The notes: generated by a model not told the origin, from the sequence alone. A stretch of DNA of 64,000 nucleotides from a virus (IMGVR_UViG_3300029305_011610:13395-77394); one strand, 5' to 3'. Shown: positions 7,639-44,616, counted from the stretch's first letter. Translations and numbers: made by a program.

Positions 7639-8595
7639 TTATAGATTAAATGCGCCTTTCCATTTTTCATAATCACGCTTAAATTCTCGTGATATCGACG
7701 CTAAACGAACTTCATGTGGAACGCTATCATCGAAGTTTTTATCTTCTATATACTCGTTTGCAATTGAGATAAACTCAACAGTATCTCCAAGTTCTTCTGC
7801 CTCGTATGCACGGTAAAATATACCTGACATCCATGCTCTTTGGTAGCTAATTACTTTATCAGTATTTCCGCTTTTATTCGCCCTAGCAACTTTTCTAGAC
7901 ACCTCATCCCTTATGCCTCTTACGTTAACAGTTGAAGTTCTAAAACCACGAAGTAACTTATCTCCTGGGGCACGATTTCTTTCTCTTTTCGACTCGGCAT
8001 AATCATTTTTCCGGTAAATCATTGTATCCGACAAAAGGTTTTTAAGTACTGGAAACGCCTTTGGATAAATTTCAAGATATCTTCCTTTATATTTTATAGT
8101 CCGGTTAAAAAGATCAATATCAGAAGTTTTTAACTCAGTTATAAAATCATGATTTACTCCATGATATGCCAGCCACAAATATCCCTTATAAACGTCATCT
8201 ATCGTCGGATCTGTGTCATCGCCAAATACATCTGTTAGAAACTTATCCATTTGCAGCGGATTCTTAATCATGTAAAGCTTAAGTTTTCCGTAGCCAACAG
8301 AATTAATATTAAGCATACCATCGCAAGCTCCTGGAACATTATTATTTATGCACCACTTTACATATTTTTTCAGAACATTAATTCGCGTCCATTTTGCTTT
8401 CGTTCTCAGGCCAGCAATTTCATTAACCAAGCCGTCTAGCTCTTCTGCAGACCTAGTGCAAATATCTGCGCCCCATTCTTCCTCGTATTTTGCTGCAACC
8501 TTAAACGTATCCACAGCGAAGCTGATACTCTTTTCATCTTTTTCTGATTTATACATATCAGAAAGATAGCGCATTTTCAGTTCTTTGTTGTACAA
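7639..8595 (-). CDS. Hypothetical protein
   Basis: 318-aa ORF. No recognisable catalytic motif. Confidence 0.5.
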   Translation of the reverse strand: MYNKELKMRYLSDMYKSEKDEKSISFAVDTFKVAAKYEEEWGADICTRSAEELDGLVNEIAGLRTKAKWTRINVLKKYVKWCINNNVPGACDGMLNINSVGYGKLKLYMIKNPLQMDKFLTDVFGDDTDPTIDDVYKGYLWLAYHGVNHDFITELKTSDIDLFNRTIKYKGRYLEIYPKAFPVLKNLLSDTMIYRKNDYAESKRERNRAPGDKLLRGFRTSTVNVRGIRDEVSRKVARANKSGNTDKVISYQRAWMSGIFYRAYEAEELGDTVEFISIANEYIEDKNFDDSVPHEVRLASISREFKRDYEKWKGAFNL

Positions 8596-8607: not shown

Positions 8608-9069
8608 TTAAGATTTATGTAGGGTTTTCATAGCATTTAAACTGATAGCCTTCTCCCATAAAACTAGGAGACAACTAGGATCAACAAATGCTATAGCAGA
8701 AGTTGCGAGTAAATGCGCTTCGGCAATCTTTGACATATACTCGTCAGACAGAGTCGTAATATAGGTCTCAAGTCGACTCTTAGAAACACATTCAGGATTT
8801 TCGCAAAGCACCATACTATCTCTTAAAAGGCCTGTACCTTTTGCAGGGATTACAACATGAGTAGGCTGACTTGTTTTCTTAAGCTGGCTTGTCATCGGCA
8901 AAACAATTACGTTTGGGCTATAGGTATTCCCAACATTGTTTTGCAAAACAACTGCAGGCCTATATCCATGCTGAACACTGTCACTGCCATTAAATCGCAT
9001 GGTATACACGTCGCCAATGCAGATATTTCTATTACTATTTCTTGCTGTCATGGTGCCACTTCCTTTCAT
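8608..9069 (-). CDS. mazF: MazF/PemK-family endoribonuclease toxin
   Basis: GDVYTMRFNGSDSVQHGYRPAVVLQNN...NVIVLPMTSQ...THVVIP matches the PemK/MazF core (RPAVV...VIVAPITS). No antitoxin-like ORF is adjacent. Confidence 0.7.
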   Translation of the reverse strand: MKGSGTMTARNSNRNICIGDVYTMRFNGSDSVQHGYRPAVVLQNNVGNTYSPNVIVLPMTSQLKKTSQPTHVVIPAKGTGLLRDSMVLCENPECVSKSRLETYITTLSDEYMSKIAEAHLLATSAIAFVDPSCLLVLWEKAISLNAMKTLHKS

Positions 9070-10311: not shown

Positions 10312-10323
10312 GAAAACCTCCTT

Positions 10324-10731: not shown

Positions 10732-10775
10732 TTGTTACTTAATTTTATCATAACTATCGCGCGCTCTCAAGTCAT

Positions 10776-11207
10776 CTAAGAGAGATCACAAACTATTTCA
10801 ATACGACCATATGGTCTATTGCCAAGCATAATCTTCAAAGAGTTGTAAATCTCATTTATATCAATTTCACCTTTGAACTCCAAAGAAAATGCAGAAAATG
10901 ATGATTTTTTATTAACTTCAGCTGGCTCACCGTTATCAGTTTCTCTCCCTAAAAAGTTTGACCATGCATTTTCTTCATAGGGCTTCATACTTTTTCCTCT
11001 AGTGAATCTTATCCCATGCTCGTTGGCGAGATACTTTCTTACTGTTAGAGAAGACGCCCCAAACATCTCTGCCAGGTTAATCGACGTCACGCCGAATCGT
11101 TCGATCAATCCTTGCACATATTCCCTTTGAACATCATGTGGCATTCTCTTAAAACTACTCCACTCCATTGGAGCTTCTAAATTATAGTTAGAAGATTCCA
11201 CTGGCAT
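10776..11207 (-). CDS. Hypothetical HTH-containing protein
   Basis: Segment LAEMFGASSLTVRKYLANEHGI resembles a helix-turn-helix. Confidence 0.45.
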   Translation of the reverse strand: MPVESSNYNLEAPMEWSSFKRMPHDVQREYVQGLIERFGVTSINLAEMFGASSLTVRKYLANEHGIRFTRGKSMKPYEENAWSNFLGRETDNGEPAEVNKKSSFSAFSLEFKGEIDINEIYNSLKIMLGNRPYGRIEIVCDLS

Positions 11208-12375
11208 TACCTCCCCTCACGATGTAAACCATTTCTGCAATCACTTTGGCAGCCAAATCTATGTCTGATAATTTACTTGACGGAGAAAACGATATTCTCA
11301 ATGTACCTCTCGCCTCGTCGTCACTAAACCCTATCGACTTAAGAACATAGCTTGGGTTATTATTTTTACTATTGCACGCAGAGCCGGTAGACACGCATAT
11401 ATTATTACTATCAAGCATTAATTGTACTGTACCAGCATCAACGCCAGAAAATGTTATGCTCACAATTTTATATACTTCTCTTCTCATTGTCTCATTTATC
11501 CAATAGTCGTCACCAGCGCTGTATCCCAGCTCAAACATATGCTTTGATAGCGATCTGCAAAATTCTAGATACTGAGCTCTAGATATCGTAACATTATGAT
11601 TGCGATCTCGTAGTGCAATCTCGCACGCCTTGCCAAACCCAACTATACTAGCTACGTTTTCTGTTCCACCTCTTAGTCCAAATTCCTGACTATCGCCACC
11701 ATATATCATCGGTGTAATAATAGAACTATCTCTAACATAAAGAGCACCAATACCTTTCGGTCCGCCTATTTTATGAGAAGATATAGTCATAAAATCACAA
11801 CCGATCTTATCAACATCAAGGTCGAAATATCCTGCCGCTTGTACACAGTCAGTATGGAACAAGACCCCATTCTCTCTGCAGCACGAAGAAATTTCATGAA
11901 TTGGATTGCAAAACCCTAACTCATTATTTACATACATTACAGACACAAGGCCAGTTTCATCTGTCACTAACCTATTTAATTCGTCGGGTCGTACATACAC
12001 TGTGTTATCTGGAGCCATAATTGTGACTCCAAATCCGTCTTTCGTTTTGAGGCTATCTACAGCTTTCAGAACAGACTTATGTTCAGTTTGGGATGTAATT
12101 ATATGCGTCTTACCAGTGGCTCTGAGGTGCTCTCGAAGTCCCTGAAACACCATATTATTGGCCTCTGTAGCACCAGAAGTAAATATGATTTGTTCCGGCT
12201 TACAGTTCAACAAACTGGCAACTTGAGTTCTGGCAGCGGCTACTGCAGAAGCTGCTTTCCTTCCAAGCTTGTATGCTGCTCCAGGATTTCCGAACTGTTC
12301 AGTCAAATATGGCATCATTGCATCCAGCACTTCAGGATGAACAGGTGTTGTTGCGGCATTATCTAAATAAATCAC
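11188..12375 (-). CDS. Cysteine desulfurase (NifS/IscS class V aminotransferase)
   Basis: MIYLDNAATTPVHPEVLDAMMPYL...FTSGATEANN...SSHKIGGPKGIGALYVR (PLP-lysine SSHK motif). 395 aa. Confidence 0.85.
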   Translation of the reverse strand: MIYLDNAATTPVHPEVLDAMMPYLTEQFGNPGAAYKLGRKAASAVAAARTQVASLLNCKPEQIIFTSGATEANNMVFQGLREHLRATGKTHIITSQTEHKSVLKAVDSLKTKDGFGVTIMAPDNTVYVRPDELNRLVTDETGLVSVMYVNNELGFCNPIHEISSCCRENGVLFHTDCVQAAGYFDLDVDKIGCDFMTISSHKIGGPKGIGALYVRDSSIITPMIYGGDSQEFGLRGGTENVASIVGFGKACEIALRDRNHNVTISRAQYLEFCRSLSKHMFELGYSAGDDYWINETMRREVYKIVSITFSGVDAGTVQLMLDSNNICVSTGSACNSKNNNPSYVLKSIGFSDDEARGTLRISFSPSSKLSDIDLAAKVIAEMVYIVRGGNASGIF

Positions 12376-12689
12376 CTTGCCGCCTCCCGAACCAATAGAT
12401 AATTAGAGTTTCTTGTTTCAACCAAAACTTCATTCTCTTCCATACGAACCCTTATAACCTCTGATGTCCAAAATCTGTGCGGCCGATCATCATAATCGAC
12501 ATCAACTAAAAGCTGTGCGCTTCTACCTACATGCAATGATAGAATCGTGCATCTTTTTCCAATCGCGTCTTCATGAGAGTGATTAACCTCACTCTTGTCT
12601 TTTTTGTCTATGTCCTTAATTATGTAGTAAGGACTAGCAAATGGGTCATGACAAAGCATACATTTCACCTCTATATCATTAGTGCTCAT
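12372..12689 (-). CDS. Hypothetical protein
   Basis: 105-aa ORF between the desulfurase and the Cys-rich protein. Confidence 0.45.
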   Translation of the reverse strand: MSTNDIEVKCMLCHDPFASPYYIIKDIDKKDKSEVNHSHEDAIGKRCTILSLHVGRSAQLLVDVDYDDRPHRFWTSEVIRVRMEENEVLVETRNSNYLLVREAAR

Positions 12690-13362
12690 TAAACACTACT
12701 TGTTCTCCATATTTAAGGTTCCAACAACCGCTGTCTGTGACTGCGCAGCTGGTACAATTATTCTCACATTGAACGGCATCTGCTCTGGCAGTCGTTGTGC
12801 CATCTTTATATTTAACGTGCGCCTCTGGAAAACCATATGGGTTCTGCATTTCCAAACCAGTCCACGCACTAAAAACCATGTGCAGGTTATCCGGGATCAC
12901 CCCACCAGACTCTATGAATTCGTTCACGATTTCGTATTTCTTTGTAAAACACAAAATCTGGCAATGTCTGTTTCTCCCGGCAACTCCTATCATTTCAAAG
13001 AAATATTCAGGAGTTGGAATATCGCCAGAAACATGAAAGCGGAAGAATCGAGACATCATAATAGACGCCTCAACCTCCCGCCAATAAACCTCTGGATTTG
13101 TTCTTAGTATTTCCAAATTGTGCTTATATGCATTACGCACAGAAGGGCGTAGACGCTCAAGCTTAGCTGCGTAGCACTTCTGCTGACACTCACATTGCCT
13201 ACAAGTAATTTTGGATGGCAATGATACACTTGGAATCGCACCTAATTTTGAATTACCTTTCGAAATTTTTACTGTTCCCATATTATTGCCTCCTTTTGCT
13301 TGGGAAATAAAAAGAGGGATTGTGTTAATACAATCCCTCCAAGTTACTATTCTTTTTACCAA
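12679..13362 (-). CDS. Cysteine-rich protein (C-x2-C-x-C-x3-C cluster; DUF5131/Gp37-Gp68-like?)
   Basis: ITCRQCECQQKCYAA plus distal CENNCTSCAVTDSGC. Possible metal or Fe-S binding. Function unknown. Confidence 0.5.
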   Translation of the reverse strand: MVKRIVTWRDCINTIPLFISQAKGGNNMGTVKISKGNSKLGAIPSVSLPSKITCRQCECQQKCYAAKLERLRPSVRNAYKHNLEILRTNPEVYWREVEASIMMSRFFRFHVSGDIPTPEYFFEMIGVAGRNRHCQILCFTKKYEIVNEFIESGGVIPDNLHMVFSAWTGLEMQNPYGFPEAHVKYKDGTTTARADAVQCENNCTSCAVTDSGCWNLKYGEQVVFNEH

Positions 13363-13515
13363 TTTTTAATATGGTAAGCAGAGACACCGATCAGTGCACC
13401 GCCGACAATTAGATTCAGGACACTAACAATACCTGCCCCTTGGCTTGAAGCCACAACAGTTCCCACTCCGGCCGCTACGATACCAAAGCCAAACATGGTT
13501 ACATCAAAATGCTTT

Positions 13516-14526
13516 TTATTCATCGCACCCTCCGCAATTCATAATATTCTCTTTTTCTTCTTTCATCCGCTCTCTAAACTTCAAAAACTCTCTTGTATAC
13601 TCATAGCTTTTACCAAATATTGCGTTAGCCGCATTATACAGTTTCGGTTCATGGTCTTTTAAAGCGGCGAGCTCATCCTCAAAACGCTTCCCGAACGGGC
13701 AGCCAAAGCAACCAGTTCGCTCAAGCCCGTATTTTGTATAACATTCACTGTGTGTTACTTCATAATGTTTACAGCATTCTTCTTTATCAGAATCACGCAT
13801 CCAGAACAAAGGTCTGAAATCGTCCGGTCCTTCTTCTCTATCCAAAAAACATGATTTGTGTGCAGCTCTAATGCCATTCTCGTATTTTCTAACACCAATA
13901 CAGACCAAATCATAGCCCTTATCTTTTTGGAACACATGTGCAGTCTTTTTCTTGGCGTAATCACAGCACTTACCAGATATTTTAAATTGTGGAGGATTCT
14001 GAATCATGAATTCTTTTAAGTATGGATAGCGCTCAATTATAAACATTTGAGTTCCTTTGCCTTTATTACACCACCAAGAAAGGGCTGTCTTGCAGTTTGG
14101 ATACTTCTCAAGCAGTGTCTCGAAATCCTCGTCCTCAAATTGAAAGTTATGTCTCTGTAGTCTGTAAATCATTTCTGAAGCATATTTACTCCAAAATGGA
14201 ACTCCGTATTCTCTGCAACAAGTAGGAATCGACTTGACAGCTTTGGCGCGTTTGATTTCTATACCATATTTTTGCTCCAGATAATCCAGATGATCTTTGG
14301 TTGCCTGATATTCAAGGCCTGTGTCCATGAACATAAAGTCTGTTTTATCAAGACCTCCACACCTGATAATCATGTCGATCATTACGTCACTATCCGCCCC
14401 TCCCGAAACCAGACACGCAATCTGGCTATGAGCGTCAATTATCTCGACACATTTCTCAAAAGCGTTATGTATGACAAAATTATTCGGAGCGCTACCAATC
14501 AGTTGATTTAGCTCGTCTTGTGTCAT
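13516..14526 (-). CDS. PP-loop ATP pyrophosphatase (PAPS-reductase/TtcA-TtuA/DndC-like)
   Basis: SGGADSDVM PP-loop motif near the N-terminus. C-terminal cysteines (CCREYG..., CFGCPFG). Confidence 0.75.
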   Translation of the reverse strand: MTQDELNQLIGSAPNNFVIHNAFEKCVEIIDAHSQIACLVSGGADSDVMIDMIIRCGGLDKTDFMFMDTGLEYQATKDHLDYLEQKYGIEIKRAKAVKSIPTCCREYGVPFWSKYASEMIYRLQRHNFQFEDEDFETLLEKYPNCKTALSWWCNKGKGTQMFIIERYPYLKEFMIQNPPQFKISGKCCDYAKKKTAHVFQKDKGYDLVCIGVRKYENGIRAAHKSCFLDREEGPDDFRPLFWMRDSDKEECCKHYEVTHSECYTKYGLERTGCFGCPFGKRFEDELAALKDHEPKLYNAANAIFGKSYEYTREFLKFRERMKEEKENIMNCGGCDE

Positions 14527-15431
14527 AAGAAAGCTCTTTCGTAGAATTCAACTACGTTCTCCATCAACATTGCTACCGTCATTGGGCCGATGCCGCCAGG
14601 TACGGGTGTGTACGCCTTGCAATGTTTGAAGATTTCTGGATCGAAGTCTCCTCTAAGCTTACCATTCTTGTCTCTATTGATCCCGACATCAACAAAGACC
14701 TTATCATAGTAAACCAAGCCATCTTCGTTAGTAACTTCATCGGGTTCAATATTATAGTATAAATCGTTATACGTTAACACATCTTCAACACCAGCAGCAG
14801 ATACGATAATGTCTGATATTGCAACAGCATCTAACAGGACACGCTTTGGAGTCTTACTATGACACTGGACGACAGTCGCATTTCTTTGCTCCATCATTCT
14901 CGCAACCGGTCTACCAACAATATTACTTCTGCCAATAACACATACTGTCTTGCCTTCAAGTTCAATATCGTATTCATCAAGAAGTTGCATGATTCCCTTA
15001 GGTGTGCAAGGCTTATTATGATAATTTCTGCCAGATGCCAAGCCACCGACATTCTCCAGTGATACAAACCCATCTACATCAAAAGACATGTGTACAAAAC
15101 TAGTTAGGTCTGCCTCCTCAACACTGCCGGTAATCGGCATCTGGAAAATGATTGGATTATATGTTCTATCACAAATATCCTCTACGTCTTCTTCAGTCAA
15201 GTAGTCGAAATGAATTACTTCTGCTTCAATTCCGATTTCTTCGCATCTTCGAACTTTGTTTCGAACATATACTTTGCCAGCCTCGTTATCACCACTTGTG
15301 ACAATGGTCAGCCTTGGCTGAATTTCGAACTTCTTCAGTTCGTTAACCCGCATCTTAAGATCTTCACAAACCCCGTCAGCAAGCTTTTTACCATTAAGTA
15401 TAGTTGCTATGTTTATCACCCTTTCGTTCAT
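14523..15431 (-). CDS. folD: Bifunctional methylenetetrahydrofolate dehydrogenase/cyclohydrolase
   Basis: KVYVRNKVRRCEEIGIE...DVDGF...PCTPKGIMQLL...GKTVCVIGRSNIVGRPVA...CHSKT...DVGINR matches FolD along its length. Confidence 0.8.
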   Translation of the reverse strand: MNERVINIATILNGKKLADGVCEDLKMRVNELKKFEIQPRLTIVTSGDNEAGKVYVRNKVRRCEEIGIEAEVIHFDYLTEEDVEDICDRTYNPIIFQMPITGSVEEADLTSFVHMSFDVDGFVSLENVGGLASGRNYHNKPCTPKGIMQLLDEYDIELEGKTVCVIGRSNIVGRPVARMMEQRNATVVQCHSKTPKRVLLDAVAISDIIVSAAGVEDVLTYNDLYYNIEPDEVTNEDGLVYYDKVFVDVGINRDKNGKLRGDFDPEIFKHCKAYTPVPGGIGPMTVAMLMENVVEFYERAFL

Positions 15432-15706: not shown

Positions 15707-15732
15707 TTCTCACCTAGCTATTTAACACCAAA

Positions 15733-16074: not shown

Positions 16075-16362
16075 CTATCCGCAAGTACTCATAAAGCTCA
16101 ACCTTTAAGTCAGCGCCAATATTACTATCTTGCACTATTCTCCTCAAAAGTTTGAGCCGCTGGGAATTATTCATCCTTATCATCTGCGATATCAACAAGA
16201 ATTTCCTCACACACTTGTGTGAAGTCCGAAATAGAGATTGGGACTCCTTTAGGCATCTTTGACCTATGTCTCTTGCATTCTGTGTTAATGCAAACTTCAG
16301 ATCTGCAGAAAGTGTAGTCGTAATCAAAAAACATCATTTCACATCCTTTTGTTTTAATAAAA

Positions 16363-26733: not shown

Positions 26734-27435
26734 TCACACTCCAACCTCATTCTGATTCTTGTTGAGCTTACTCCAATTATACCAACCGTACAGACAGTTG
26801 ATTGTCCATGCTACATACATTGCAACCATAGACCAGTTGCCGGCAACAAACCAGAGCTTAATACACAGTAAGTCGATGAAAAGCCACCAGATCCACTGTT
26901 CTCTATAACGCCAAACCATCAGCAGTTGTGCGATAATTGCCATTACATTTGTGGCAGCATCTGTATACGCTTGAGCACTATCGAAATAATCAAGCGCTTT
27001 ACCCATAATCGCAGTTGCGATAACGGTCAGAACAAGAGAAACGGCCCACTGTGTAGCAGTAAATTTCTTAGCCGCTACGTCGGATGAGCCGTCTTCATTC
27101 TGTACCATATTCTTTTTCCATACGAAAATGCCCCAAATCATTGTTACGAAATAAAACAGATTCTCAAGAACTTCTCCGTAAAATCGGTTTTCCCATGCAA
27201 GATATAAATATGTAAATGTCTGGATAAACCCGATAAAATACGCAGACAGTTTCCCCTTTGCAAATAGAACTACGGAGATAACGCCTGCAATACCTGCAAC
27301 AATATTTACCCATGTATCAGGTGTGATACAGAATACAATAATCTGCAGCGTAACCATCGCCGTCAGGAAGATTCTTTCATACCAACTGTAGCCAGTCCAA
27401 AACTCATTTACGAGAGTATTTTTAATCTTGTTCAT
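26734..27435 (-). CDS. pnuC: Nicotinamide riboside transporter PnuC-like
   Basis: Seven predicted TM helices with Trp-rich PnuC-like segments (WENRFYGEVLENLFY..., WYNWSK). Confidence 0.7.
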   Translation of the reverse strand: MNKIKNTLVNEFWTGYSWYERIFLTAMVTLQIIVFCITPDTWVNIVAGIAGVISVVLFAKGKLSAYFIGFIQTFTYLYLAWENRFYGEVLENLFYFVTMIWGIFVWKKNMVQNEDGSSDVAAKKFTATQWAVSLVLTVIATAIMGKALDYFDSAQAYTDAATNVMAIIAQLLMVWRYREQWIWWLFIDLLCIKLWFVAGNWSMVAMYVAWTINCLYGWYNWSKLNKNQNEVGV

Positions 27436-28556
27436 CGTCCAATCACCTCATTGACATAGTTAACAACGGCCAAGAAATTGCCGTAATATCCTTCTCTTAA
27501 AACTGTAACCTTATCCCAGTTACCTGATGCCTTGATATTGTTGCACAGAATCTCAAACAACTCCTGTCGTTCTTCCATTCCAGAATGATTCATAAACCTC
27601 ATATGATCGTCTACAAAAACTCCGTTTGGTGCAACCAAAAATATCTTATCCCATCTACATTTTCGAGTGAGTTCATCAGCCATAACAGCTACCTTCTCAA
27701 ACTCTTCTTGAGTTAGTTCGCAATCTTTATCCTTGGCATAGTATTCTGCGTACATACGAGTAACCATCGAGTCAGAATCAGCAAAGAACAAGCCGTGGTT
27801 GGCAGGAGAATTGATAAGCTTTTTGTTGAGATTATATTGACCTTCTAAGAACGCCATGTAGTCAGCACCGTCCAGTTCCCAGTCACTCACACAGCTCTCT
27901 TTCATATAATCTCTCGCGTACTCCCAGCTGTAAGGAGCATTAAAGTATTTACCAAGGTCTCTTGTTAACACGGTTTTGCCCTCTGAAGCAGTGCCTGCAA
28001 TCAGAATATTATGGCTGAAAACTCTTCTGAAAGGAAAAGTAATCTTATCCCAATTCTTAATCGGATTCTGGCGAATCGCTGTAGCACAGATCGGGTTAGT
28101 CGCAACACGATCTACCAGTATAGCTTCTTCACCACGAATCGTTAATCCTTCGCTATACTCTGCATCACCAACATACCACCGGCGAGACGCTTGTCCACAA
28201 ACACCTTTATCCCAGATGCGCTTTGCTTCATTAAGCCATGCTTCCCAGCCATTTGGGTATGTTTCAATTCCAAGCTCCGTGTCGTTAATTGCATACACGG
28301 CAACCAGATCATCGTCAGCAAAGAACTCTCGCACATATCTGTATCGTTTGGAGTGCGGCATTAGCGGCTCTCCTTTATCTCCATCGTAACCGCACACAAT
28401 TACAAGTGCGCCACCGTCATTTTCCTTCTTAGCCCTCATAATCAAGTCAAGATGCCCTTGATGCAGAGGGGCAAAAGAACCAAAAACAACCCCTACGGAA
28501 TTTCCGCAAAGGGGTTTCTGATAAGCATGTAACATTTTTACTTCTCCTTTTCCCAA
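27432..28556 (-). CDS. nadR: NadR-like bifunctional NMN adenylyltransferase / ribosylnicotinamide kinase
   Basis: N-terminal GSFAPLHQGH (HxGH nucleotidyltransferase motif) and central P-loop IAGTASEGKT. Gene is adjacent to pnuC. Confidence 0.75.
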   Translation of the reverse strand: MGKGEVKMLHAYQKPLCGNSVGVVFGSFAPLHQGHLDLIMRAKKENDGGALVIVCGYDGDKGEPLMPHSKRYRYVREFFADDDLVAVYAINDTELGIETYPNGWEAWLNEAKRIWDKGVCGQASRRWYVGDAEYSEGLTIRGEEAILVDRVATNPICATAIRQNPIKNWDKITFPFRRVFSHNILIAGTASEGKTVLTRDLGKYFNAPYSWEYARDYMKESCVSDWELDGADYMAFLEGQYNLNKKLINSPANHGLFFADSDSMVTRMYAEYYAKDKDCELTQEEFEKVAVMADELTRKCRWDKIFLVAPNGVFVDDHMRFMNHSGMEERQELFEILCNNIKASGNWDKVTVLREGYYGNFLAVVNYVNEVIGR

Positions 28557-34571: not shown

Positions 34572-34648
34572 TGGTGCGCCTCCTGGGGCTCGAACCCAGA
34601 ACCGTCCGGTTATGAGCCGGGTGCTCTAACCAATTGAGCTAAAGGCGC
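34572..34648 (-). tRNA. tRNA-Met/Ile2 (anticodon CAT), CCA encoded
   Basis: Manual fold: acceptor GCGCCTT/GAGGCGC, D-arm GCTC..GAGC, anticodon loop CTCATAA, T-arm CTGGG-TTCGAGC-CCCAG. Lacks initiator-type features, so an elongator or Ile2. Confidence 0.75.
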
Positions 34649-34661
34649 ATGTTAATCTGAG

Positions 34662-34883
34662 TTAATGCAACAACTTAACACGATTCGTCTCTTCATACTC
34701 TGTTAACACATCATTTGCTAACGCAACGGCATAACACGAATAGTATTTCTCGCAAGAACTTTCGCAATCATCAAGAGTCCATCCTTCGGGGATATCGCAT
34801 CCTGTTAGGTTTTTCATTTTAATATTTAGACCATTATCAATTACATCGTCAAACATCGACCTATCTATATTATATTGTTTCAT
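34662..34883 (-). CDS. Hypothetical protein
   Basis: 73-aa ORF. Several <60-aa ORFs with good RBSs follow at 34915–35823 on the minus strand. Confidence 0.4.
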   Translation of the reverse strand: MKQYNIDRSMFDDVIDNGLNIKMKNLTGCDIPEGWTLDDCESSCEKYYSCYAVALANDVLTEYEETNRVKLLH

Positions 34884-35920
34884 AGATATTCCCTCATTTA
34901 CGAAATCACTTTTATGTGGTTAATCTTCTTCATACAAATCAATGAAACAACGAACAGCACCGCAATAAGGACAAACATTTGTATCATTGACTTCATCGTA
35001 ATCAAATTCATCTTCGTGAAATTCTTCTTTGCAAATATCACATCTTACTCTATTAGTAGGTACTAACATAATTCATCACCTTAAAATCGTCATTTTATCC
35101 ACATTTCATTTGAATAAAATATCTAAAGCCTTTACTCCAATTAGGTTTCTCGCCCCACAAATGAACCTCATCTTTTGGCAGATTCTTCTTTGCCCAATTA
35201 TTAGCCTGTGATGCTGTCTTGAATCCAGACTTTACGGGAGTAAAGTTCTTCTCTTTATCAATTACACAAAACATAACCTTACCTCCAAAATAGTCATTTT
35301 AATCTCTATTTACAAAGCCATTTACTCTGTCTATCAGTCTATCAGCACCCTCTACTTGTGCAATTCCAACAAGCTCCTCTAAATCTTGTTTCAAATAGCA
35401 CATACAGTTCCAATCCATATAAGAACCTTGTACACAGTTCAAAATCTCTGTAATTTTTTCTTTAGATGTCATATTATCCACCTCTTAGAATTGTCATTTT
35501 ATAAACAGGCTATTCCATAAATCTTTAACCATGTTTCTTTTGGTTTCCTTTTTATATACAAAACACATCATAAGAAAAACAATAAACATGATTGTAATAG
35601 AAACAAGTACACCTTTCATACTTTTACCTCATAAAATTATCCTTTCATGCTCTATCGACTGTGTAATAGGATGTAAATTTGTATTTTTTACTTGATTCAT
35701 TCATATCTTTTGCGAAAGCTTCTGCCTCTTCTAATGTACCGAAAAAGTATGTTGCTCTATAATGCATATAGCTGCCCTTTTGAAAAAAATCATCGTACTG
35801 ATGAACCCTATATTTTTTGTCCATATCGCACCTTCATTTCAGTTTTTACAACACACCAAATCCATTAGCTACAAACCTAGCTACCATCGGCCTAGCCTTG
35901 CGGCTGCCGAAACCTCTCCT

Positions 35921-35990
35921 ACGTATTACGTACTAACTGCTTACGCAATTACTACGTATTATTTACTAACTGTTATACGCAATTTCTTCC
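35921..35990. repeat. Two direct repeats of about 34 bp
   Basis: ACGTATTACGTACTAACTGCTTACGCAATTACT / ACGTATTATTTACTAACTGTTATACGCAATTTCT, in the non-coding region before the tRNA array. Confidence 0.6.
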
Positions 35991-36188
35991 ACGCCTCACA
36001 AGACATGTAACCTCTGGATTTGATATGTCACGGCACTTCTCACCCAATCCTCTGGTGCGTTCAGTAGGCAGCCGTTTCCACAATCTGTCTTGGGTGACCA
36101 ATCTAATCAATCGCATCTTTGTCGCTACCGCACAGCGCGCAAGACAGGCCCGTTTAGTCTCATGGAGCTCTGTGGAACCATACATCTG

Positions 36189-36262
36189 GAGCGGATGACG
36201 GGAATCGAACCCGCGTACCCAGCTTGGAAGGCTGGTGTTCTACCATTGAACTACATCCGCAT
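36189..36262 (-). tRNA. tRNA-Gly (anticodon TCC), CCA encoded
   Basis: GCGGATGTAGTTCAATGGTAGAAC...anticodon loop CTTCCAA...GGGTTCGATTCCCGT...CTCCA. Confidence 0.8.
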
Positions 36263-36428
36263 TTGATGGTGGTTTTTAACCCGTGGGAAGTCAAAATGGG
36301 TGGTCAACCACCGTAACCATGGCATTGCGCTTTGTGCACACTAATGACGAAAGGTGTCAAACTATAGTAAGCGCAAAAGAACCTCAACGCTCTTCCACCT
36401 CGCAGATTGCCATTCTGCCTCGTGGGAC

Positions 36429-36504
36429 TGGTGCGCCAAGGGGGATTCGAACCCCCGACTAATGCCTTAAAAGGGCACTACTCTGCCAGCTGAGTTATTG
36501 GCGC
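36429..36504 (-). tRNA. tRNA-Lys (anticodon TTT), CCA encoded
   Basis: Anticodon arm GTGCC-CTTTTAA-GGCAT. T-arm GGGGG-TTCGAAT-CCCCC. Acceptor GCGCCAA/TTGGCGC. Confidence 0.8.
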
Positions 36505-36720
36505 ATGAAAGGAGGGCGATTTTTAACTCCGTGAGAGGCCAACCGCCGTAGCCTTTTACTTTGGATTGTTCTATACATTCCTACACACAGCACAGGCTTG
36601 AAGGTGAAAGACAACACAAAAAGAAAAGCCAAAGCTATGCAAGCCGAAATTGTTAAACGTGTAATGTCTGAACACCAAAAACCAATTCTATTTGTCTGAA
36701 AAAGAATTGGGAAGAAAATC

Positions 36721-36812
36721 TGGTACGGGCACAGAGACTCGAACTCTGATCAACCAATTATCTGTTGCTACGGAGTATAAACCCGTTGCTCTACCGATTG
36801 AGCTATACCCGC
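36721..36812 (-). tRNA. Atypical tRNA: anticodon loop TTTATAC (anticodon TAT, Ile?) with a 21-nt variable arm, CCA encoded
   Basis: Good acceptor (two G·U pairs), D-arm GCTC-AATCGGTA-GAGC, T-arm CAGAG-TTCGAGT-CTCTG. The type-II-length variable region (hairpin CAAC...GTTG) is unusual for a UAU anticodon. Confidence 0.5.
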
Positions 36813-36936
36813 ATGTTTGTGCTTCTTGGTTTTCTCAACTATGGAGAGGCTTGCCCATTGCCGGTTTATAGTCCCTTCCGCATTGGGACTTGAAAGGAAG
36901 ATTAAAAATGAATCAAATAAGTACCTATTTGATATA

Positions 36937-37011
36937 TGGCAGGGATGGCTGGATTCGAACCAGCGAATGACGGAGTCAAAGTCCGTTACCTTACCGCTTG
37001 GCTACACCCCT
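36937..37011 (-). tRNA. tRNA-Gln (anticodon TTG), CCA encoded
   Basis: AGGGGTGTAGCCAAGCGGTAAGG...ACGGA-CTTTGAC-TCCGT...GCTGG-TTCGAAT-CCAGC, typical bacterial Gln architecture. Confidence 0.8.
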
Positions 37012-37169
37012 ATAAAGGCGGCTACTCGCGCCGCCATGTGTGTTTTCTTTCGGATACTCCTACATCAGCCCGTGGTTATCACACAACCCCAAATCTAGCT
37101 CCGCAGGTCGTCGGAAGCTGATCCCGTCACCTGTTTCAACGCTACGATAACAGTCTTGCCGCTACCGCA

Positions 37170-37243
37170 TGGCATGGAAGCTCGGAATCGAACCGAAATT
37201 AATAGTTTTGGAGACTATCGTTTTACCATTAAACTACTCCCAC
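37170..37243 (-). tRNA. tRNA-Trp (anticodon CCA), CCA encoded
   Basis: Anticodon arm ATAGT-CTCCAAA-ACTAT, D-arm GTTT..AAAC, T-arm TTCGG-TTCGATT-CCGAG. The acceptor stem has two G·U pairs. Confidence 0.7.
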
Positions 37244-37342
37244 AAATGAAACAAATGGGCGGCAGAACCGACTATAGTCTACTCTTTAAAGCTAAGAGGA
37301 AAGCTTAACCTCACGCCAGAATCCCTAGCGCTACCCATTAGA

Positions 37343-37425
37343 AACTTTTTTATGGTGCCGGTAGCGAGACTCGAACTCGCACGAGTAAACACGAGCTCCT
37401 AAGACTCGCGTGTCTACCAATTCCA
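37343..37425 (-). tRNA. tRNA-Leu (anticodon TAG), type II, CCA encoded
   Basis: GCCGGTATGGTGGAATTGGTAGACAC...CGAGT-CTTAGGA-GCTCG, 11-nt variable arm, GCGAG-TTCGAGT-CTCGC. Confidence 0.8.
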
Positions 37426-37439
37426 CCATACCGGCGTGA

Positions 37440-37515
37440 TGGTCTGAGTAGAGGGATTCGAACCCCCGACATCCTGTTCCCAAAACAGGCGCGCTACCAA
37501 CTGCGCTATACCCAG
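37440..37515 (-). tRNA. tRNA-Pro (anticodon TGG), CCA encoded
   Basis: CCTGT-TTTGGGA-ACAGG anticodon arm. GGGGG-TTCGAAT-CCCTC T-arm. Confidence 0.8.
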
Positions 37516-37520
37516 ATATA

Positions 37521-37598
37521 TGGAGCTGGTTGTGGGGATCGAACCCACGACCTCCGGATTACAAATCCGGCGCTCTAACCAACTGCAGCTAAACCAGC
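37521..37598 (-). tRNA. tRNA-Thr (anticodon TGT), CCA encoded
   Basis: GCTGGTTTAGCTGCAGTTGGTTAGAGC...CCGGA-TTTGTAA-TCCGG...GTGGG-TTCGATC-CCCAC. Confidence 0.8.
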
Positions 37599-37828
37599 GT
37601 GCTTCTGCGAGCTTATGCACCCTTTTTGGCATCAGAACTCGTACCATTAGCTACGAATAACATAGGTATGGATTTACACCATACATAGTGTCTTATTGGA
37701 ATTGTGTGCGCACACGCCTCCAGATTCTCACACCTGAATCACTTGCGTCTACCTATTCCGCCACTACATTTCTTCGCAGCCGCAGGGAAGGCTTTACCTT
37801 CTCAAGCATAATTTAATCATCACTTACT

Positions 37829-37916
37829 TGGCGGAGCAGAGAGGGTTCGAACCTCCGCACGGATTACCGCCTATCTGATTAGCAATCAGACCTCTTCACC
37901 ACTTGAGTACTGCTCC
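37829..37916 (-). tRNA. tRNA-Ser (anticodon GCT), type II, CCA encoded
   Basis: GGAGCAGTACTCAAGTGGTGAAGAGG...TCTGA-TTGCTAA-TCAGA, long variable arm, GGAGG-TTCGAAC-CCTCT. Confidence 0.8.
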
Positions 37917-38067
37917 ATGCTGTGTCACGAATAATGTATACTATTCGGGACAAATTGGTATGAGTGGGCCATGGCCCGTCCATGTACCCACTCTGCTTTG
38001 TCGTCTCTTCCGACTTGTCAAGATCGGTTTTCATAATCTCACACTCCGCAAAGTGTAGCCCCTATTG

Positions 38068-38159
38068 TGGCGCGGATAGAGGGATTTGAACCCCCGCACG
38101 GTAGTTAGCCGCCTAGCGCTTTTCAAGAGCGCACTCTTCAACCGCTTGAGTATATCCGC
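38068..38159 (-). tRNA. tRNA-Ser (anticodon TGA), type II, CCA encoded
   Basis: GCGGATATACTCAAGCGGTTGAAGAG...GCGCT-CTTGAAA-AGCGC, long variable arm, T-loop TTCAAAT. Confidence 0.75.
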
Positions 38160-38188
38160 ATAGTTTACGCCACCTTTGGTGGCGTGTT

Positions 38189-38590
38189 TTATGTATTAAA
38201 ATCACTGAATTGTTTGCTTTTCACTTCGAACTCTGCATATTTAATACCAACAGAAATTCCGTGCTTAGACATTATTTCATCCGACGGTATTAAATACATC
38301 CTATCGTCACCTGTTAATATAAATACATAGTCGCATGATTGATTATCGAATAATCTGACCTTGCCTTTACCAGACGAACCACCACAGTTTTTTAGCAACA
38401 CATAATATGATGTTTCGGAAGATTTATATCGACTCGTTTTAACCGAGACTCTCGATAATTTACCGTCATGATCTATTACTAAATCATACTTTTGAGTATC
38501 ATTCAAAGGAATGCTAACTGGGATAGAATGACTGGTAAAGAATTCAATAGCCCTACCTAAACCAATATTTCCTTGTAATGATTGATACAA
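38189..38590 (-). CDS. Hypothetical protein, possibly a PD-(D/E)XK-like nuclease
   Basis: YDLVIDHDGKLSRVSVKTSRY...DYVFILTGDDRMYLIP resembles a D...(D/E)xK nuclease core. Weak call. Confidence 0.4.
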   Translation of the reverse strand: MYQSLQGNIGLGRAIEFFTSHSIPVSIPLNDTQKYDLVIDHDGKLSRVSVKTSRYKSSETSYYVLLKNCGGSSGKGKVRLFDNQSCDYVFILTGDDRMYLIPSDEIMSKHGISVGIKYAEFEVKSKQFSDFNT

Positions 38591-38657
38591 TATTTTTTAC
38601 ATAGCCTTCTTTTCCCTTTCATTCTGCTCGAAGTATTAAGTGATTTTAACGTACCAA

Positions 38658-38996
38658 TTAAGTAAGCCCTTCATCCGCTTGGGTATACCCGCAATTGATA
38701 TCTTCGATTTGCGCATTCATAGAATCGCGCTTTTGTAAATCGCTATGTTTGTAATTAATAGAAGGAGAATAATTGCCTTTCCTGCGCTTGCCTTTATTTC
38801 TCGTTTTAGCAGAGCACATATGGCATGAGCAATGGATCTTGTTCTTAGAATACTGATGGAAATTATCGTATGTAGGAGTGCCGTAGCCGATTTCCTTATC
38901 GATTCTGCGTCTTCGTGCCGCTTTTCTCTTAGCTACATCTCTGTAATAACCTCTATTTCTTTCCATAATGTTTCTCCTTTGTTGTTTAAGTATCAT
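38658..38996 (-). CDS. Basic Arg/Lys-rich protein with CSCHMC motif
   Basis: YYRDVAKRKAARRRRIDKEIGYG...CSCHMCSAKTRNKGKRRK. Possible nucleic-acid binding. Confidence 0.45.
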   Translation of the reverse strand: MILKQQRRNIMERNRGYYRDVAKRKAARRRRIDKEIGYGTPTYDNFHQYSKNKIHCSCHMCSAKTRNKGKRRKGNYSPSINYKHSDLQKRDSMNAQIEDINCGYTQADEGLT

Positions 38997-39039
38997 TAAG
39001 AATCCAAAATACCAATCCTGTAGCCTGAAGATCTAGTCA

Positions 39040-39195
39040 CCTGAAGAAGGCTGGTCGGTGGCAGCAAGAATGGCTACTTGCTGGGAAGGCAAGACGTATA
39101 AATTAAAGAAGGTAAACTCGGGGAAGACCTAGGAAAACGCAACTAGACCCGCGATGGCGGTCCCGGCGTCGACCTGTCACCTCATCTCTCTTTTA
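39040..39195. ncRNA. GC-rich structured non-coding element 1, ending at a conserved 30-nt motif
   Basis: About 60% GC island in AT-rich DNA with local hairpins (CAGCAAG...CTTGCTG). It is followed by the shared motif. No plausible ORF. Confidence 0.35.
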
Positions 39196-39199
39196 TTGA

Positions 39200-39232
39200 T
39201 CGAACCTTTACTCCCACTTACAGCGAGGAGCA
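39200..39232. repeat. Conserved motif TCGAACCTT(T/C)ACT(C/T)C(C/T)ACTTACAGCGAG(G/A)AGCA, copy R1
   Basis: Near-identical to 39433–39464. Its 3' 22 nt also occur at 33887–33908. Confidence 0.6.
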
Positions 39233-39299
39233 CACTAAAAAGTGTAATACATTACAAAATGATACTTTTATACACGTTATTCTATATACTTTATATGTG

Positions 39300-39430
39300 A
39301 GCACCAGGTTGGAAGCAAGCGCTCCGGGGGTTCGCAGGTGACTGGCGTGCGGTCTAGGAGGGGTTGCTGTCCTCCAATCTGGGCGGAGTCTCTTCGGCCG
39401 GGGTTTTCCCTGCGATAGGCTGGACTGTTG
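39300..39430. ncRNA. GC-rich structured non-coding element 2, ending at the same motif
   Basis: GCACCAGGTTGGAAGCAAGCGCTCCGGGGGTTCGCAGGTGACTGGCGTGCGG...CGGCCGGGG, about 62% GC. The track ORF 39277..39465 is implausible as coding. Confidence 0.35.
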
Positions 39431-39432
39431 GT

Positions 39433-39464
39433 CGAACCTTCACTTCTACTTACAGCGAGAAGCA
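39433..39464. repeat. Conserved motif copy R2
   Basis: TCGAACCTTCACTTCTACTTACAGCGAGAAGCA, immediately 3' of the RT stop. Confidence 0.6.
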
Positions 39465-39495
39465 TCGTATAAACGATAATGCTATATAGAATATT

Positions 39496-40647
39496 TTAAT
39501 ATTTTAGATCTGACTTGATTGCCGAAACAATATCAACTCCTACCTTTCTACTGATATGGTCTACCATCTTATCTATGGTTTCTTTTTCAATCATTCGGTA
39601 GTAGTTTCTATGCCCTTCAAGCACTCTTATATCTGTCTTTTCCCACGGCGTCCCATTTAATCTATCCAACGCATAGTTGGTTAGCATTGCTTGGAACTCC
39701 TTTTTCTTCTTATACCCAATCGTAATATCATTGTTGGAGTTAAGCATTACACCCAGATGTCTGTTTCGCCCAGCAGACGATCCGTAAGTAGTCTTTTCCT
39801 TCTTGATAATAAATGGGGCATTGAAGTAGCTAAGTGTATTTGTGATCAGCTGCTCAACTAACTTCACATCGAAGTCTCGCCTTGAAGAAATGATGAAGTC
39901 GTCTGCATATCTTGTATACACAAACGACTGGTTGTTGTAGTTATGAAGCATTTTAGTTAACGCATGGTCTACTGGGATCATCATTATATTTGTGATTAGC
40001 GGAGAGATCGGTGTTCCTTGAGGCAATCCGCCGTTCAAGAATGCAAGTTCAAGGGCAGTTTCGAGCTGCTGCCTACCCACAGTATACTTAACCACCTCTG
40101 AGAATGGAAAAATCATTGAAAACTGCTTCATCACAAATTCAAGCGTTGTGCTACCAAAGAAGTCAGACAAATCGAACTTGCCGAACCACTTACTCTCGTT
40201 CGCTTGATGTTTTTTGATCGCATCTATTGTGCTTCTCTTTTTCACATAAGCGAACGCAGAGGTGTGATACAGTGCATGAAAATCTTCTTCAAAGATAACT
40301 TTAAGAGTTCTCAATGCTTCCATCAGTTCGGGATTTGGTGCGTCGATTCTTCTATAACCTCTCCCGCTTTTCTTGGGCTGATAAAAAGTACGATACTGAT
40401 CCTGTCTCGGCCTGCTTCGCAACTCTTCTGTTTGCTGATTAAACACAACCAGCTTAGAGATAAGCAAGGGGATATTAACACTTGCCAGCATTTTATCGCT
40501 CACTTGCTCCACACAGTATGTTCTGGTAGATGTAAATCTGCCCGCAGAAGGTACAACCGGTTCGCGAATCGTGGCTGTTGCGAACAGCAACTCTTCCAGT
40601 GTCATCTCTCGAAGTACAGGAGCGTTTTTTACTGTTATGTATACCAT
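39496..40647 (-). CDS. Reverse transcriptase (retron/group-II-like RT domain, 383 aa)
   Basis: RT motifs GLPQGTPISPLITN (motif 4), VYTRYADDFIIS (YADD, motif 5), IKKEKTTYG...RHLGVMLN (motifs 6–7, retron VTG-like), and a distal HRNYYRMIE (thumb/X-like). Confidence 0.85.
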   Translation of the reverse strand: MVYITVKNAPVLREMTLEELLFATATIREPVVPSAGRFTSTRTYCVEQVSDKMLASVNIPLLISKLVVFNQQTEELRSRPRQDQYRTFYQPKKSGRGYRRIDAPNPELMEALRTLKVIFEEDFHALYHTSAFAYVKKRSTIDAIKKHQANESKWFGKFDLSDFFGSTTLEFVMKQFSMIFPFSEVVKYTVGRQQLETALELAFLNGGLPQGTPISPLITNIMMIPVDHALTKMLHNYNNQSFVYTRYADDFIISSRRDFDVKLVEQLITNTLSYFNAPFIIKKEKTTYGSSAGRNRHLGVMLNSNNDITIGYKKKKEFQAMLTNYALDRLNGTPWEKTDIRVLEGHRNYYRMIEKETIDKMVDHISRKVGVDIVSAIKSDLKY

Positions 40648-40665
40648 CGGTATCCCCTTTCTTAT

Positions 40666-41376: not shown

Positions 41377-41389
41377 ACAATCACCTCTC

Positions 41390-42067: not shown

Positions 42068-42069
42068 TA

Positions 42070-43038: not shown

Positions 43039-43050
43039 ACGTTCCTCCTA

Positions 43051-44499: not shown

Positions 44500-44529
44500 T
44501 AAAACACCCCTTGTCTTTTAATTGTAAGA

Positions 44530-44616
44530 TGGTGTCGGAGACGGGATTCGAACCCGCACGTGATCAATCACACCAGATTTTAAGTCTGGGTTGTCTCCCA
44601 GTTCCACCACTCCGAC
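44530..44616 (-). tRNA. tRNA-Leu (anticodon TAA), type II, CCA encoded
   Basis: GTCGGAG...CCAGA-CTTAAAA-TCTGG, variable-arm hairpin GTGATTGATCAC, GCGGG-TTCGAAT-CCCGT, acceptor CTCCGAC-A-CCA. Confidence 0.75.

Follow-up and report, generated by a model that had tools for sequence, protein, structure and literature searches.

Gene content of the locus

The 64-kb stretch of viral DNA analyzed here (IMGVR_UViG_3300029305_011610:13395-77394, hereafter the window, with positions counted from its first letter) represents part of an approximately 131.7-kb genome, that of an uncultured tailed phage. Between positions 11188 and 15431 it carries six open reading frames (ORFs) on the minus strand, which encode FolD, a PP-loop ATP pyrophosphatase, a hydrophobic peptide (p55), a cysteine-rich protein of the GP88 family, a small protein (p105) and a cysteine desulfurase (Table 1). 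A first-pass annotation had viewed this block as a set of four genes for sulfur mobilization and one-carbon metabolism; all four were recovered with the same limits, on the minus strand, while the ORFs for p55 and p105 bring the count to six. Among these products, the desulfurase and the PP-loop enzyme form a plausible sulfur donor-acceptor pair, and orthologs of the latter occupy the position of DndC in bacterial chromosomal loci. DNA is a more likely target of this pair than tRNA.

The block lies within a tightly packed minus-strand run (10776-15706) that comprises p92, FolD, the PP-loop gene, p55, GP88, p105, the desulfurase and p143. Most junctions of the block are overlaps of 4-20 bp (e.g., 8 bp between p55 and the PP-loop gene), a layout consistent with translational coupling. 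The sole real gap of the run, about 75 bp between p55 and GP88 (13282-13355), houses a terminator-like hairpin, and the genes on its two sides, i.e., FolD/PP-loop/p55 and GP88/p105/desulfurase, may constitute two transcription units. A promoter scan of the block returned matches no more common than in shuffled sequence. The proteins of the window are 100% identical on the JGI contig Ga0318466_10002703 (131.7 kb), and the six-gene block is 100% identical on two metagenomic contigs of 131.7 kb and 31 kb; hence, it is not an assembly artifact. A nucleotide search with positions 10000-17000 against 50,697 phage records gave zero matches. Relatives of the PP-loop protein occur in assemblies of Oscillospiraceae, Acutalibacteraceae, Ruminococcus and Lachnospiraceae. 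No homolog of p55 was found at the other loci compared, confining this peptide to the present phage.

Table 1. Positions of the genes and other features discussed in the text, in window coordinates
Feature	Position	Strand	Basis or remark
FolD, 302 aa	14523..15431	-	Pfam, phrog_7320, motifs; 4-bp overlap with the PP-loop gene
PP-loop ATP pyrophosphatase, 336 aa	13516..14526	-	PAPS_reduct, SGGADS, Cys motifs
p55, 55-aa hydrophobic predicted membrane peptide	13356..13523	-	ORF list; gene call on JGI contigs
Terminator-like hairpin	13313..13340	-	Consensus-scan pattern match; 11-bp stem, then TTTTATTT (T-run)
GP88-family Cys-rich protein, 200 aa	12679..13281	-	Pfam PF17338
p105, small protein (105 aa from first ATG; 95 aa per JGI call)	12372..12689	-	phrog_31804
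Cysteine desulfurase, 395 aa	11188..12375	-	Aminotran_5, NifS/DndA/SspA models, SSHK and GSAC
p143, 143 aa	10776..11207	-	ORF call; helix-turn-helix read by eye
MazF/PemK toxin	8608..9069	-	E 5.8e-24
MrpR-like recombinase	7639..8595	-	
PnuC-type nicotinamide mononucleotide transporter and NadR-like cytidylyltransferase/AAA_28 kinase	26734..28556	-	
tRNA array	34572..44616		ARAGORN
Reverse transcriptase	39496..40647	-	RVT_1 E 5e-20
E1/JAB region	40666..44499	-	Also two unannotated ORFs, 236 and 482 aa
ThiF/E1-like protein	41390..42067	-	PADLOC E1-E2 models down to E 6e-20
JAB-like protein (weak)	42070..43038	-	Adjoins the ThiF/E1-like gene
RNA-dependent RNA polymerase-like protein, 912 aa	58062..60800	+	PF05183 E 4e-13

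The desulfurase displays the class-V aminotransferase fold, with an intact pyridoxal phosphate (PLP) motif (SSHK199) and catalytic motif (GSAC334), and matches Aminotran_5 (PF00266) at E 6.5e-79 and the NifS, DndA and IscS models at E 1e-95 to 1e-108 (NifS 1e-108, DndA 3.3e-105). To judge from these motifs and matches, it is a PLP-dependent group-I desulfurase of the NifS/IscS/DndA/SspA type. All of its bit scores fall below the respective equivalog cut-offs (NifS 363 against 531, DndA 352 against 480, IscS 318 against 548-643), and in PADLOC the SspA (E 2.3e-126) and DndA (E 1.3e-124) models are effectively equal. Since the NifS, DndA and SspA scores are thus equal and all below their cut-offs, its sequence alone singles out neither a subfamily nor a partner. 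True matches to this desulfurase come nearly all from uncultured gut contigs rather than from cultured phages; accordingly, the initial description of the gene set as unusual for a phage holds among cultured phages but not among large uncultured gut phages, in which it is recurrent.

A PP-loop family in the DndC position

Profile searches with hidden Markov models (HMMs), which the first-pass annotation had proposed, place the PP-loop protein in the 3′-phosphoadenosine 5′-phosphosulfate (PAPS) reductase fold (Pfam PAPS_reduct, E 9.4e-12; PHROGs phrog_424, 'PAPS reductase') with a canonical ATP pyrophosphatase loop, SGGADS, at residues 41-46. No match was obtained to the models of the tRNA thiolases (TtcA/TtuA/Ncs6, MnmA, ThiI) or of QueC, and none of the tRNA-binding domains THUMP, PUA and OB was detected. 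Its conserved cysteines are C153, CC187/188, C209, C226, C262 and C273-x2-C276, of which CC187/188 and C273-x2-C276 match the CC...CxxC pattern of the iron-sulfur (Fe-S) type adenosine 5′-phosphosulfate (APS) reductases and DndC and are predicted to be [4Fe-4S] ligands. Both SGGxDS and CC...CxxC are invariant in 42 homologs. A structural model built from these 42 homologs (pLDDT 93.7) features a long C-terminal helix, and in searches of the PDB its nearest solved folds are the APS/PAPS reductases, with lower fold scores for TtuA (14.0), NcsA (11.9), QueC (10.3), ThiI (9.5) and MnmA (6.7); no DndC or SspD structure is among these fold matches. Sequence searches of the PP-loop and GP88 proteins against PDB chains returned nothing meaningful.

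At E 0.01 the protein has no match to the DndC models contained in NCBIfam and PADLOC, and its partial PADLOC matches to BrxP (E 4.7e-8) and SspD (E 3.5e-7) span residues 34-110 only. Given the missing DndC-model match and the limitation of the BrxP/SspD similarity to about 80 residues, it constitutes a separate family. On sequence grounds, this family belongs to the PAPS-reductase/DndC branch of the PP-loop enzymes and not to the TtuA/TtcA/MnmA/ThiI branch. It is large, with 247 clusters at E ≤1e-30 and 930 at E ≤1e-10 among 1.84 billion representatives. A second PAPS_reduct family, about 270-316 aa in length with an SFGKDS loop and a C-terminal CWCC, adjoins GP88 (L014, L016, L120:7463-8278; loci are designated by L and a number) or the PP-loop gene (L171:11579-12529, L195, L142/L147) and also occurs in L160; in such loci two different PP-loop enzymes may work together.

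The Pfam and PHROGs names, the nearest solved folds and the CC...CxxC pattern shared with APS reductases could all be taken to indicate a viral cysH, i.e., an APS/PAPS reductase of sulfate assimilation, the product of which is sulfite destined for cysteine synthesis. Viral cysH reportedly ranks first in abundance among the organosulfur auxiliary metabolic genes (AMGs) of human-associated viromes, where it is usually read as serving sulfate assimilation (bioRxiv 10.1101/2021.01.05.425418). However, the PP-loop protein keeps SGGADS where E. coli CysH has SSSFG, lacks the C-terminal ECG[LI]H nucleophile, with no residue past C276 conserved, and differs further in an insertion of about 70 residues and in the long C-terminal helix. 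BLASTP against E. coli CysH is insignificant (E 0.05), and the CysH/APS-reductase models of NCBIfam yield 22-32 bits, over residues 32-119 only, against cut-offs of 154-254. Additionally, the genes encountered beside the family are those of DNA methyltransferases, Dnd/Pbe/Dpt systems and replication, and never cysDN, cysIJ or cysK in the compared loci. The protein thus did not classify as a firm assimilatory PAPS reductase; its signature appears to be that of an adenylating enzyme rather than of a sulfonucleotide reductase, and a role in sulfate assimilation is very improbable.

Gene neighborhoods were compared for 80 viral and 80 genomic loci around PP-loop homologs and for 49 loci around GP88 or desulfurase homologs, by means of tblastn, clustering and local HMMs; dereplication at 85% identity left 68 PP-loop groups. 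In 36/68 of these, a DNA methyltransferase (Dcm, N6/N4, Dam or Methyltransf_35) lies within 5 kb of the PP-loop gene, with a Dcm-type gene as its immediate neighbor in 14 groups. The same HMMs found a methyltransferase within 5 kb of the center gene in 0/49 control loci (Fisher p 2e-11, for loci that are not independent), and among loci whose flanks were complete, one was present in the proximal 5 kb in 17/34 as against 7/34 for the distal 5 kb (Fisher p 0.02). Of the 68 groups, ten show the context of a conjugative element (CD1107-like proteins, topoisomerase III). Cultured phages have the gene within replication modules (with DnaE and RecA in CS266P3, and with a helicase and polymerase in Bacillus phage BC-6), and the enzyme is encoded by the cultured Clostridium phages CS266P1-4. 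CS266P3, a complete phage of 47.9 kb whose PP-loop enzyme is 49% identical, has no tRNA gene, and no desulfurase, GP88, FolD or methyltransferase was found in its genome. In five groups (L184:2019-3338, L185:12315-13283, L187, L191 and L201), the PP-loop gene is followed by genes for a HATPase_c_3 protein and a Methyltransf_35 protein (PF20553, E 8.6e-96), an arrangement that resembles a modification or defense module.

In three chromosomal loci of Lachnospiraceae (L200, L179 and L203), an ortholog of the PP-loop enzyme stands in the position of DndC. L200, from Lachnospiraceae bacterium G11, comprises PbeA (PADLOC E 6e-205), a PbeC/DndD-like ATPase (PbeC E 1e-73, DndD 1.5e-35), a 177-aa ORF, the PP-loop ortholog (48% identity), a DndA/SspA-like desulfurase (E 4e-151), and FRG and AIPR. 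L179, on an 843-kb contig of Lachnospira, has the order PbeA, PbeC, 177-aa ORF and PP-loop. L203 contains a 586-aa ORF, a DptG homolog (PDB 7exx, E 6e-25), DptH/DndH (PADLOC E 0, 1857 bits; PDB 7es4, E 4e-118), the PP-loop ortholog, a desulfurase, an HNH nuclease and AbiU. The three orthologs can be aligned over their full length to the window protein and retain all of its motifs. The ORF of 177-182 aa in the DndE/PbeD position (L200:9407-9940, L179:9434-9982) is 35% identical between the two loci and matched nothing in PADLOC or the PDB, leaving its identity as DndE unproven. In published Dnd systems, DndC is the gene that accompanies a DndD-type ATPase, DndE and DndA (PMC10853773; PMC12707154); comparison of this set with the above gene orders places the PP-loop family in the DndC slot.

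Of the 68 groups, seven have a cysteine desulfurase within 5 kb of the PP-loop gene. In three of these it is the next gene downstream, at a distance of 28 bp (L011/L012/L145), 8 bp (L200) or 17 bp (L203), and the members of these adjacent pairs are 47-68% (PP-loop) and 37-50% (desulfurase) identical to the window proteins; in four further groups it lies 1-6 kb away. That this adjacency recurs across divergent lineages argues most strongly for a genuine pair of sulfur donor and acceptor. The sulfur relay from the desulfurase to an Fe-S-type PP-loop enzyme that was envisaged at the outset is, therefore, plausible.

Accessory genes and other features of the window

The GP88 protein (E 6.5e-21, 75.7 bits against a cut-off of 24.4) is homologous to gp88 of mycobacteriophages L5 and D29, the family being named after the former. 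As all its close homologs are 200 aa long, its true start is the ATG at 13281 behind GGAGG and not the TTG at 13362. The conserved cysteines comprise C27-x4-C32-x3-C36 behind strand 1, C111, C172-x3-C176-x2-C179 and C186; the C-x2-C-x-C-x3-C spacing first ascribed to the protein did not prove family-wide. An AlphaFold model from a 40-sequence alignment (pLDDT 85, pTM 0.84) superposes over 132-149 residues on the half-barrels of radical S-adenosylmethionine (SAM) enzymes (QueE, PFL-AE) and shows an SGD motif behind the second strand. Compared with the minimal radical SAM enzymes, its cysteine triad is C-x4-C-x3-C and not C-x3-C-x2-C, and it has an additional C-terminal C-x3-C-x2-C...C cluster; the Pfam Radical_SAM model does not match it. 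On the strength of this model, GP88 is predicted to be a small radical-SAM-like Fe-S protein. A 7-deazaguanine pathway, suggested by this QueE-like fold in combination with the PP-loop protein, was considered and rejected, as no QueC match was obtained and no FolE, QueD or DpdA was seen.

A literature search on the accession PF17338 retrieved no paper. In L5, gp88 sits in the right-end gene block 77-89, the early right arm; in Streptomyces phage Bmoc, GP88 adjoins ParB-like genes, and in roseophage CRP-2 it is near a Dcm methylase. These contexts are compatible with an early anti-defense or DNA-directed function. The data do not support an obligate partnership of GP88 with either the PP-loop enzyme or the desulfurase: it occurs at 5 kb or less from the PP-loop gene in 5/68 groups, about half of 41 GP88-centered loci, including an entire clade of 42% identity, have no desulfurase within 10 kb, and actinophages and roseophages possess GP88 with neither PP-loop enzyme nor desulfurase. 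The small protein p105, which overlaps the desulfurase start by 4 bp and has a single conserved cysteine (C47), has homologs in L132/L138 and L133, in each case immediately upstream of the desulfurase. Both GP88 and p105 may be early genes, either accessory or independent.

FolD is recognized above the Pfam cut-offs (THF_DHG_CYH_C, PF02882, E 2e-48; THF_DHG_CYH, PF00763, E 1.8e-17) and retains the motifs YVRNK59, GRSNIVGRP and PGGIGP. Its NCBIfam scores (≤215 bits) fall below the equivalog cut-offs, which marks it as divergent; to judge from these data, it is an intact but divergent FolD. Its inclusion in the gene set stood only in part. The idea that the PP-loop enzyme requires it as a partner was rejected, since 1/68 groups, namely this phage alone, has it at 5 kb or less from the PP-loop gene; its link to the desulfurase rather than to the PP-loop enzyme is real, since related phages have it close to the desulfurase in three further gene arrangements. 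Their FolD genes lie, with the desulfurase within 3 kb, at L120:9135-9989, L132:8476-9321 (L132/L138) and L136:12882-13751, and together with the window protein share 35-57% identity. We take FolD to be a folate enzyme that was acquired separately, moves together with the desulfurase region and is not needed by the relay.

At the other end of the run, p143 has a 20-bp overlap with the stop of the desulfurase gene, lies behind that gene in several related phages (L011, L012, L092, L108, L120, L132) and has no family match in Pfam, NCBIfam or PHROGs; it probably belongs with the conserved backbone genes of the phage and not with the pathway. The desulfurase is itself a backbone gene in related phages, where it stands beside p143, MazF and an MrpR-like recombinase. 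In the window, the genes for the MazF/PemK-family toxin and the MrpR-like recombinase are located 2-3.5 kb downstream of that for the desulfurase. Related phages have both of them in their conserved backbone (clusters c4 and c2); no antitoxin was identified.

These observations raise the possibility that the block does not encode a single pathway but independent accessory genes in a variable early region. In such a case, the desulfurase would serve Fe-S assembly in an anaerobic host (for the PP-loop protein, GP88, CxxCxxCC proteins and the activase of the anaerobic ribonucleotide reductase), while FolD would raise the one-carbon and nucleotide supply. Consistent with this, the content upstream of the desulfurase is mosaic (PP-loop, second PAPS_reduct, GP88, FolD, metallophosphatase and RNA-repair genes), most PP-loop and most GP88 homologs have no desulfurase within 10 kb, the desulfurase belongs to the backbone, and the terminator-like hairpin divides the block. 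Further, DndA is said to be able to assemble the Fe-S cluster of DndC. However, the adjacency of PP-loop enzyme and desulfurase in three divergent lineages, bacterial defense loci among them, argues for a specific partnership, and the proposal is silent on the role of the PP-loop enzyme, being for that gene compatible with sulfur transfer to DNA. We regard it as unlikely.

Elsewhere, the window encodes a primase, DnaB helicase, PD-(D/E)XK nuclease, ERF, DNA ligase and YonO-like RNA polymerase of the RNA-dependent RNA polymerase (RdRP) fold. Its 912-aa plus-strand protein, just past the switch in coding strand and GC skew at about 54 kb, matches the eukaryotic-type RdRP and has the fold of the YonO-like single-subunit RNA polymerases. 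ARAGORN predicts 12 tRNAs at 34.5-44.6 kb, rather than the at least 13 first counted; nine of the 12 have U34 (including Lys-UUU, Gln-UUG, Gly-UCC and Leu-UAA). The tRNA-Ile(TAT) of 92 nt is long for a class I tRNA and may contain an intron or be a mis-call. Between the tRNA array and the E1/JAB genes lies a reverse transcriptase, also present in the related phages L008/L009, which may belong to a diversity-generating retroelement. The E1/JAB region could be a ubiquitin-like conjugation/deconjugation module, with a sulfur-carrier activator being less likely. The PnuC-type transporter beside the NadR-like protein looks like a phage NAD+ salvage system, possibly acting against NAD-depleting defenses.

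Target and significance of the putative sulfur relay

The combination of a NifS-type desulfurase and a PAPS-domain PP-loop protein with Fe-S-type cysteines parallels the pairs DndA-DndC and SspA-SspD as well as BrxP and TdpC, and the PP-loop orthologs, like dndC, adjoin a DndD-like ABC ATPase (PbeC) and PbeA, or DptG/DptH. A PAPS-reductase-domain protein is common to all four known phosphorothioate systems, tdpC alone is enough for phosphorothioate synthesis, and dnd, ssp and brx systems are present in gut Bacillota (Clostridiales) (PMC12914056). By analogy, the desulfurase would convert the sulfur of cysteine to a persulfide and would probably load the Fe-S clusters of the PP-loop enzyme and GP88 as well; DndA, for its part, is reported to be able to assemble the Fe-S cluster of DndC. 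The PP-loop enzyme, as the analog of DndC, would use ATP to adenylate its target, with sulfur then replacing the activated oxygen. The likeliest target would be the phosphate backbone of the phage DNA, i.e., phosphorothioation, or another position in DNA. The phage could benefit from a sulfur mark resembling 'self', or from blunting Dnd/Pbe/Dpt-type restriction in its Clostridia hosts (Oscillospiraceae, Ruminococcus, Lachnospiraceae). We put the probability of such a two-enzyme relay, aimed at DNA in the manner of phosphorothioation and acting on phosphorothioate-based restriction, at roughly one half. The first-pass annotation had preferred tRNA as the target and named the phage DNA as an alternative; the association of the family with methyltransferase, replication, conjugative and Dnd/Pbe/Dpt genes, and its presence in a phage lacking tRNAs, favor the alternative.

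There is precedent for an anti-restriction role of phage PAPS-domain proteins. A fusion of a PAPS domain to Dam allows a vibriophage to escape from host Dnd (Piel et al. preprint, bioRxiv 10.1101/2021.05.05.442762), and phage PAPS reductases under Aca control were suggested to be DndC/SspD homologs acting against restriction-modification or phosphorothioate systems (PMC13551039). The present family resembles the former in being a phage PAPS-domain family linked to DNA methylation, with a methyltransferase near in about half of its contexts; unlike the fusion, the window protein stands alone and comes together with a desulfurase of its own, GP88 and FolD. It is about 25% similar to Vibrio phage PAPS proteins, although it is not confirmed that the protein of Piel et al. 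is one of these. Anti-Dnd genes with PAPS-reductase domains are, thus, already known in phages. To these, our analysis adds the co-carried desulfurase, the predicted radical-SAM-like GP88 and the finding that a 'cysH-like' family takes the DndC position in Clostridial Pbe/Dpt loci.

Several observations weigh against sulfur transfer to DNA. The family escapes the DndC models and resembles BrxP and SspD over a short segment, as noted above. Unlike the Dnd, Ssp and Brx systems, the phage genes have no DndD, DndE, SspB, SspC or BrxC partner in the window: tblastn with the L200 and L203 proteins retrieved from it neither an NTPase of the DndD/SspC/BrxC type nor a protein resembling DndE. The 64-kb window likewise yielded no DNA methyltransferase. 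We know of no phage for which an enzyme-written phosphorothioate has been demonstrated in virion DNA, and, in a further departure from Dnd, the genes are carried by a virus rather than in a defense island. Gut isolates with a PAPS-reductase gene and no partner NTPase had no phosphorothioate dinucleotides (PMC12914056). Together with these points stand those that favor RNA as the target, namely the RNA-repair genes and FolD in the neighborhood of the desulfurase and the association with PTH2, which are taken up next.

If tRNA were the substrate, the relay would make s2U34, s4U8 or s2C32, and FolD would provide methylene-THF (tetrahydrofolate) for xm5U34/m5U54, such that the U34-rich phage tRNAs stay competent in decoding or become resistant to anticodon nucleases. 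The 12 phage tRNAs, nine with U34, accord with this proposal, as does the occurrence of FolD near the desulfurase in four arrangements. Further, PP-loop tRNA thiolases of Firmicutes have NifS-like desulfurases dedicated to them, as in YrvO-MnmA and NifZ-ThiI, and the phage genes resemble these pairs and TtuA/Ncs6 in the presence of a NifS-like desulfurase beside a PP-loop sulfurtransferase; TtuA and NcsA likewise use a [4Fe-4S] cluster. One PP-loop homolog (P0070) is annotated as a fusion to PTH2, possibly as an artifact of gene calling, and in L008-L010 PTH2 is a neighbor of the PP-loop gene (L008:6109-6552), beside NrdD/NrdG, dUTPase and Thy1. The strongest point in its favor is the presence of RNA-repair genes around the desulfurase/GP88 region in related phages (L061, L091, L094, L096-L104, L120, L132/L138, L133 and L136): these include an RlaP nucleotidyltransferase, a CCA-adding enzyme, a PHA02142-type RNA ligase and a kinase-phosphatase-ligase of the Pnkp-Rnl1 type, and in related phages a metallophosphatase stands immediately upstream of the desulfurase. 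When the CCA-adding enzyme, RlaP, RNA ligase and Pnkp were looked for in the window, none turned up, save a kinase-like fragment at 28.6-29.0 kb.

However, unlike the Firmicutes pairs, the phage PP-loop enzyme belongs to another branch, matches no thiolase model and is structurally less similar to the thiolases. Only 4/68 groups have an RNA-repair gene at 5 kb or less from the PP-loop gene, as against the 36/68 with a methyltransferase, and the RNA-repair neighborhood comes from one phage lineage. The phages with RNA-repair genes share a syntenic backbone; therefore, these observations are not independent, and the shared synteny may explain them. Moreover, the family occurs in a complete phage devoid of tRNAs, in conjugative elements and in Dnd/Pbe/Dpt loci, and in the window the tRNA array is 19-30 kb away from the sulfur cluster. 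tRNA thiolation is accordingly an improbable function of the relay.

The lack of DndD/DndE-type partners in the phage, as opposed to their presence in L200 and L179, also bears on a different proposal, in which the proteins act as a decoy or hijack the host system with no marking of the phage DNA. By titrating the host DndD, DndE or PbeC, or by diverting sulfur, they would disable phosphorothioate-dependent restriction or deregulate modification in the host. The escape of the vibriophage from Dnd, the mechanism of which is unresolved (bioRxiv 10.1101/2021.05.05.442762), and the lack of phosphorothioate in the isolates without an NTPase (PMC12914056) can both be accommodated by this. Nevertheless, the invariance of the catalytic motifs SGGxDS and CC...CxxC in the 42 homologs and the co-carriage of an intact desulfurase are more simply explained by catalysis than by a decoy, and we regard such interference without marking as quite unlikely.

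Within the favored proposal of a DNA-directed relay, a stronger version can be entertained only tentatively and is, on balance, doubtful: that the phage possesses a self-sufficient, minimal DNA sulfur pathway that dispenses with DndD and DndE partners, possibly includes GP88 and p105, and writes phosphorothioate or an undescribed thio-mark on the virion DNA. If this were true, it would be the first virus-encoded DNA sulfur modification, and much of the viral 'cysH' AMG class would consist of DNA-modifying anti-restriction enzymes. By carrying both a sulfur donor and a sulfur inserter, the phage is a candidate for virus-written phosphorothioate DNA, and such a mark, if real, would affect restriction, sequencing and the host range of phages used in therapy. 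More generally, should the DNA-directed relay prove correct, this large family would represent a DndC-like nucleic-acid sulfurtransferase, and the interpretation of the sulfur 'AMGs' of viromes would change. With a family that escapes the DndC models filling the DndC slot, the phosphorothioation systems of gut Clostridia have possibly been under-counted.

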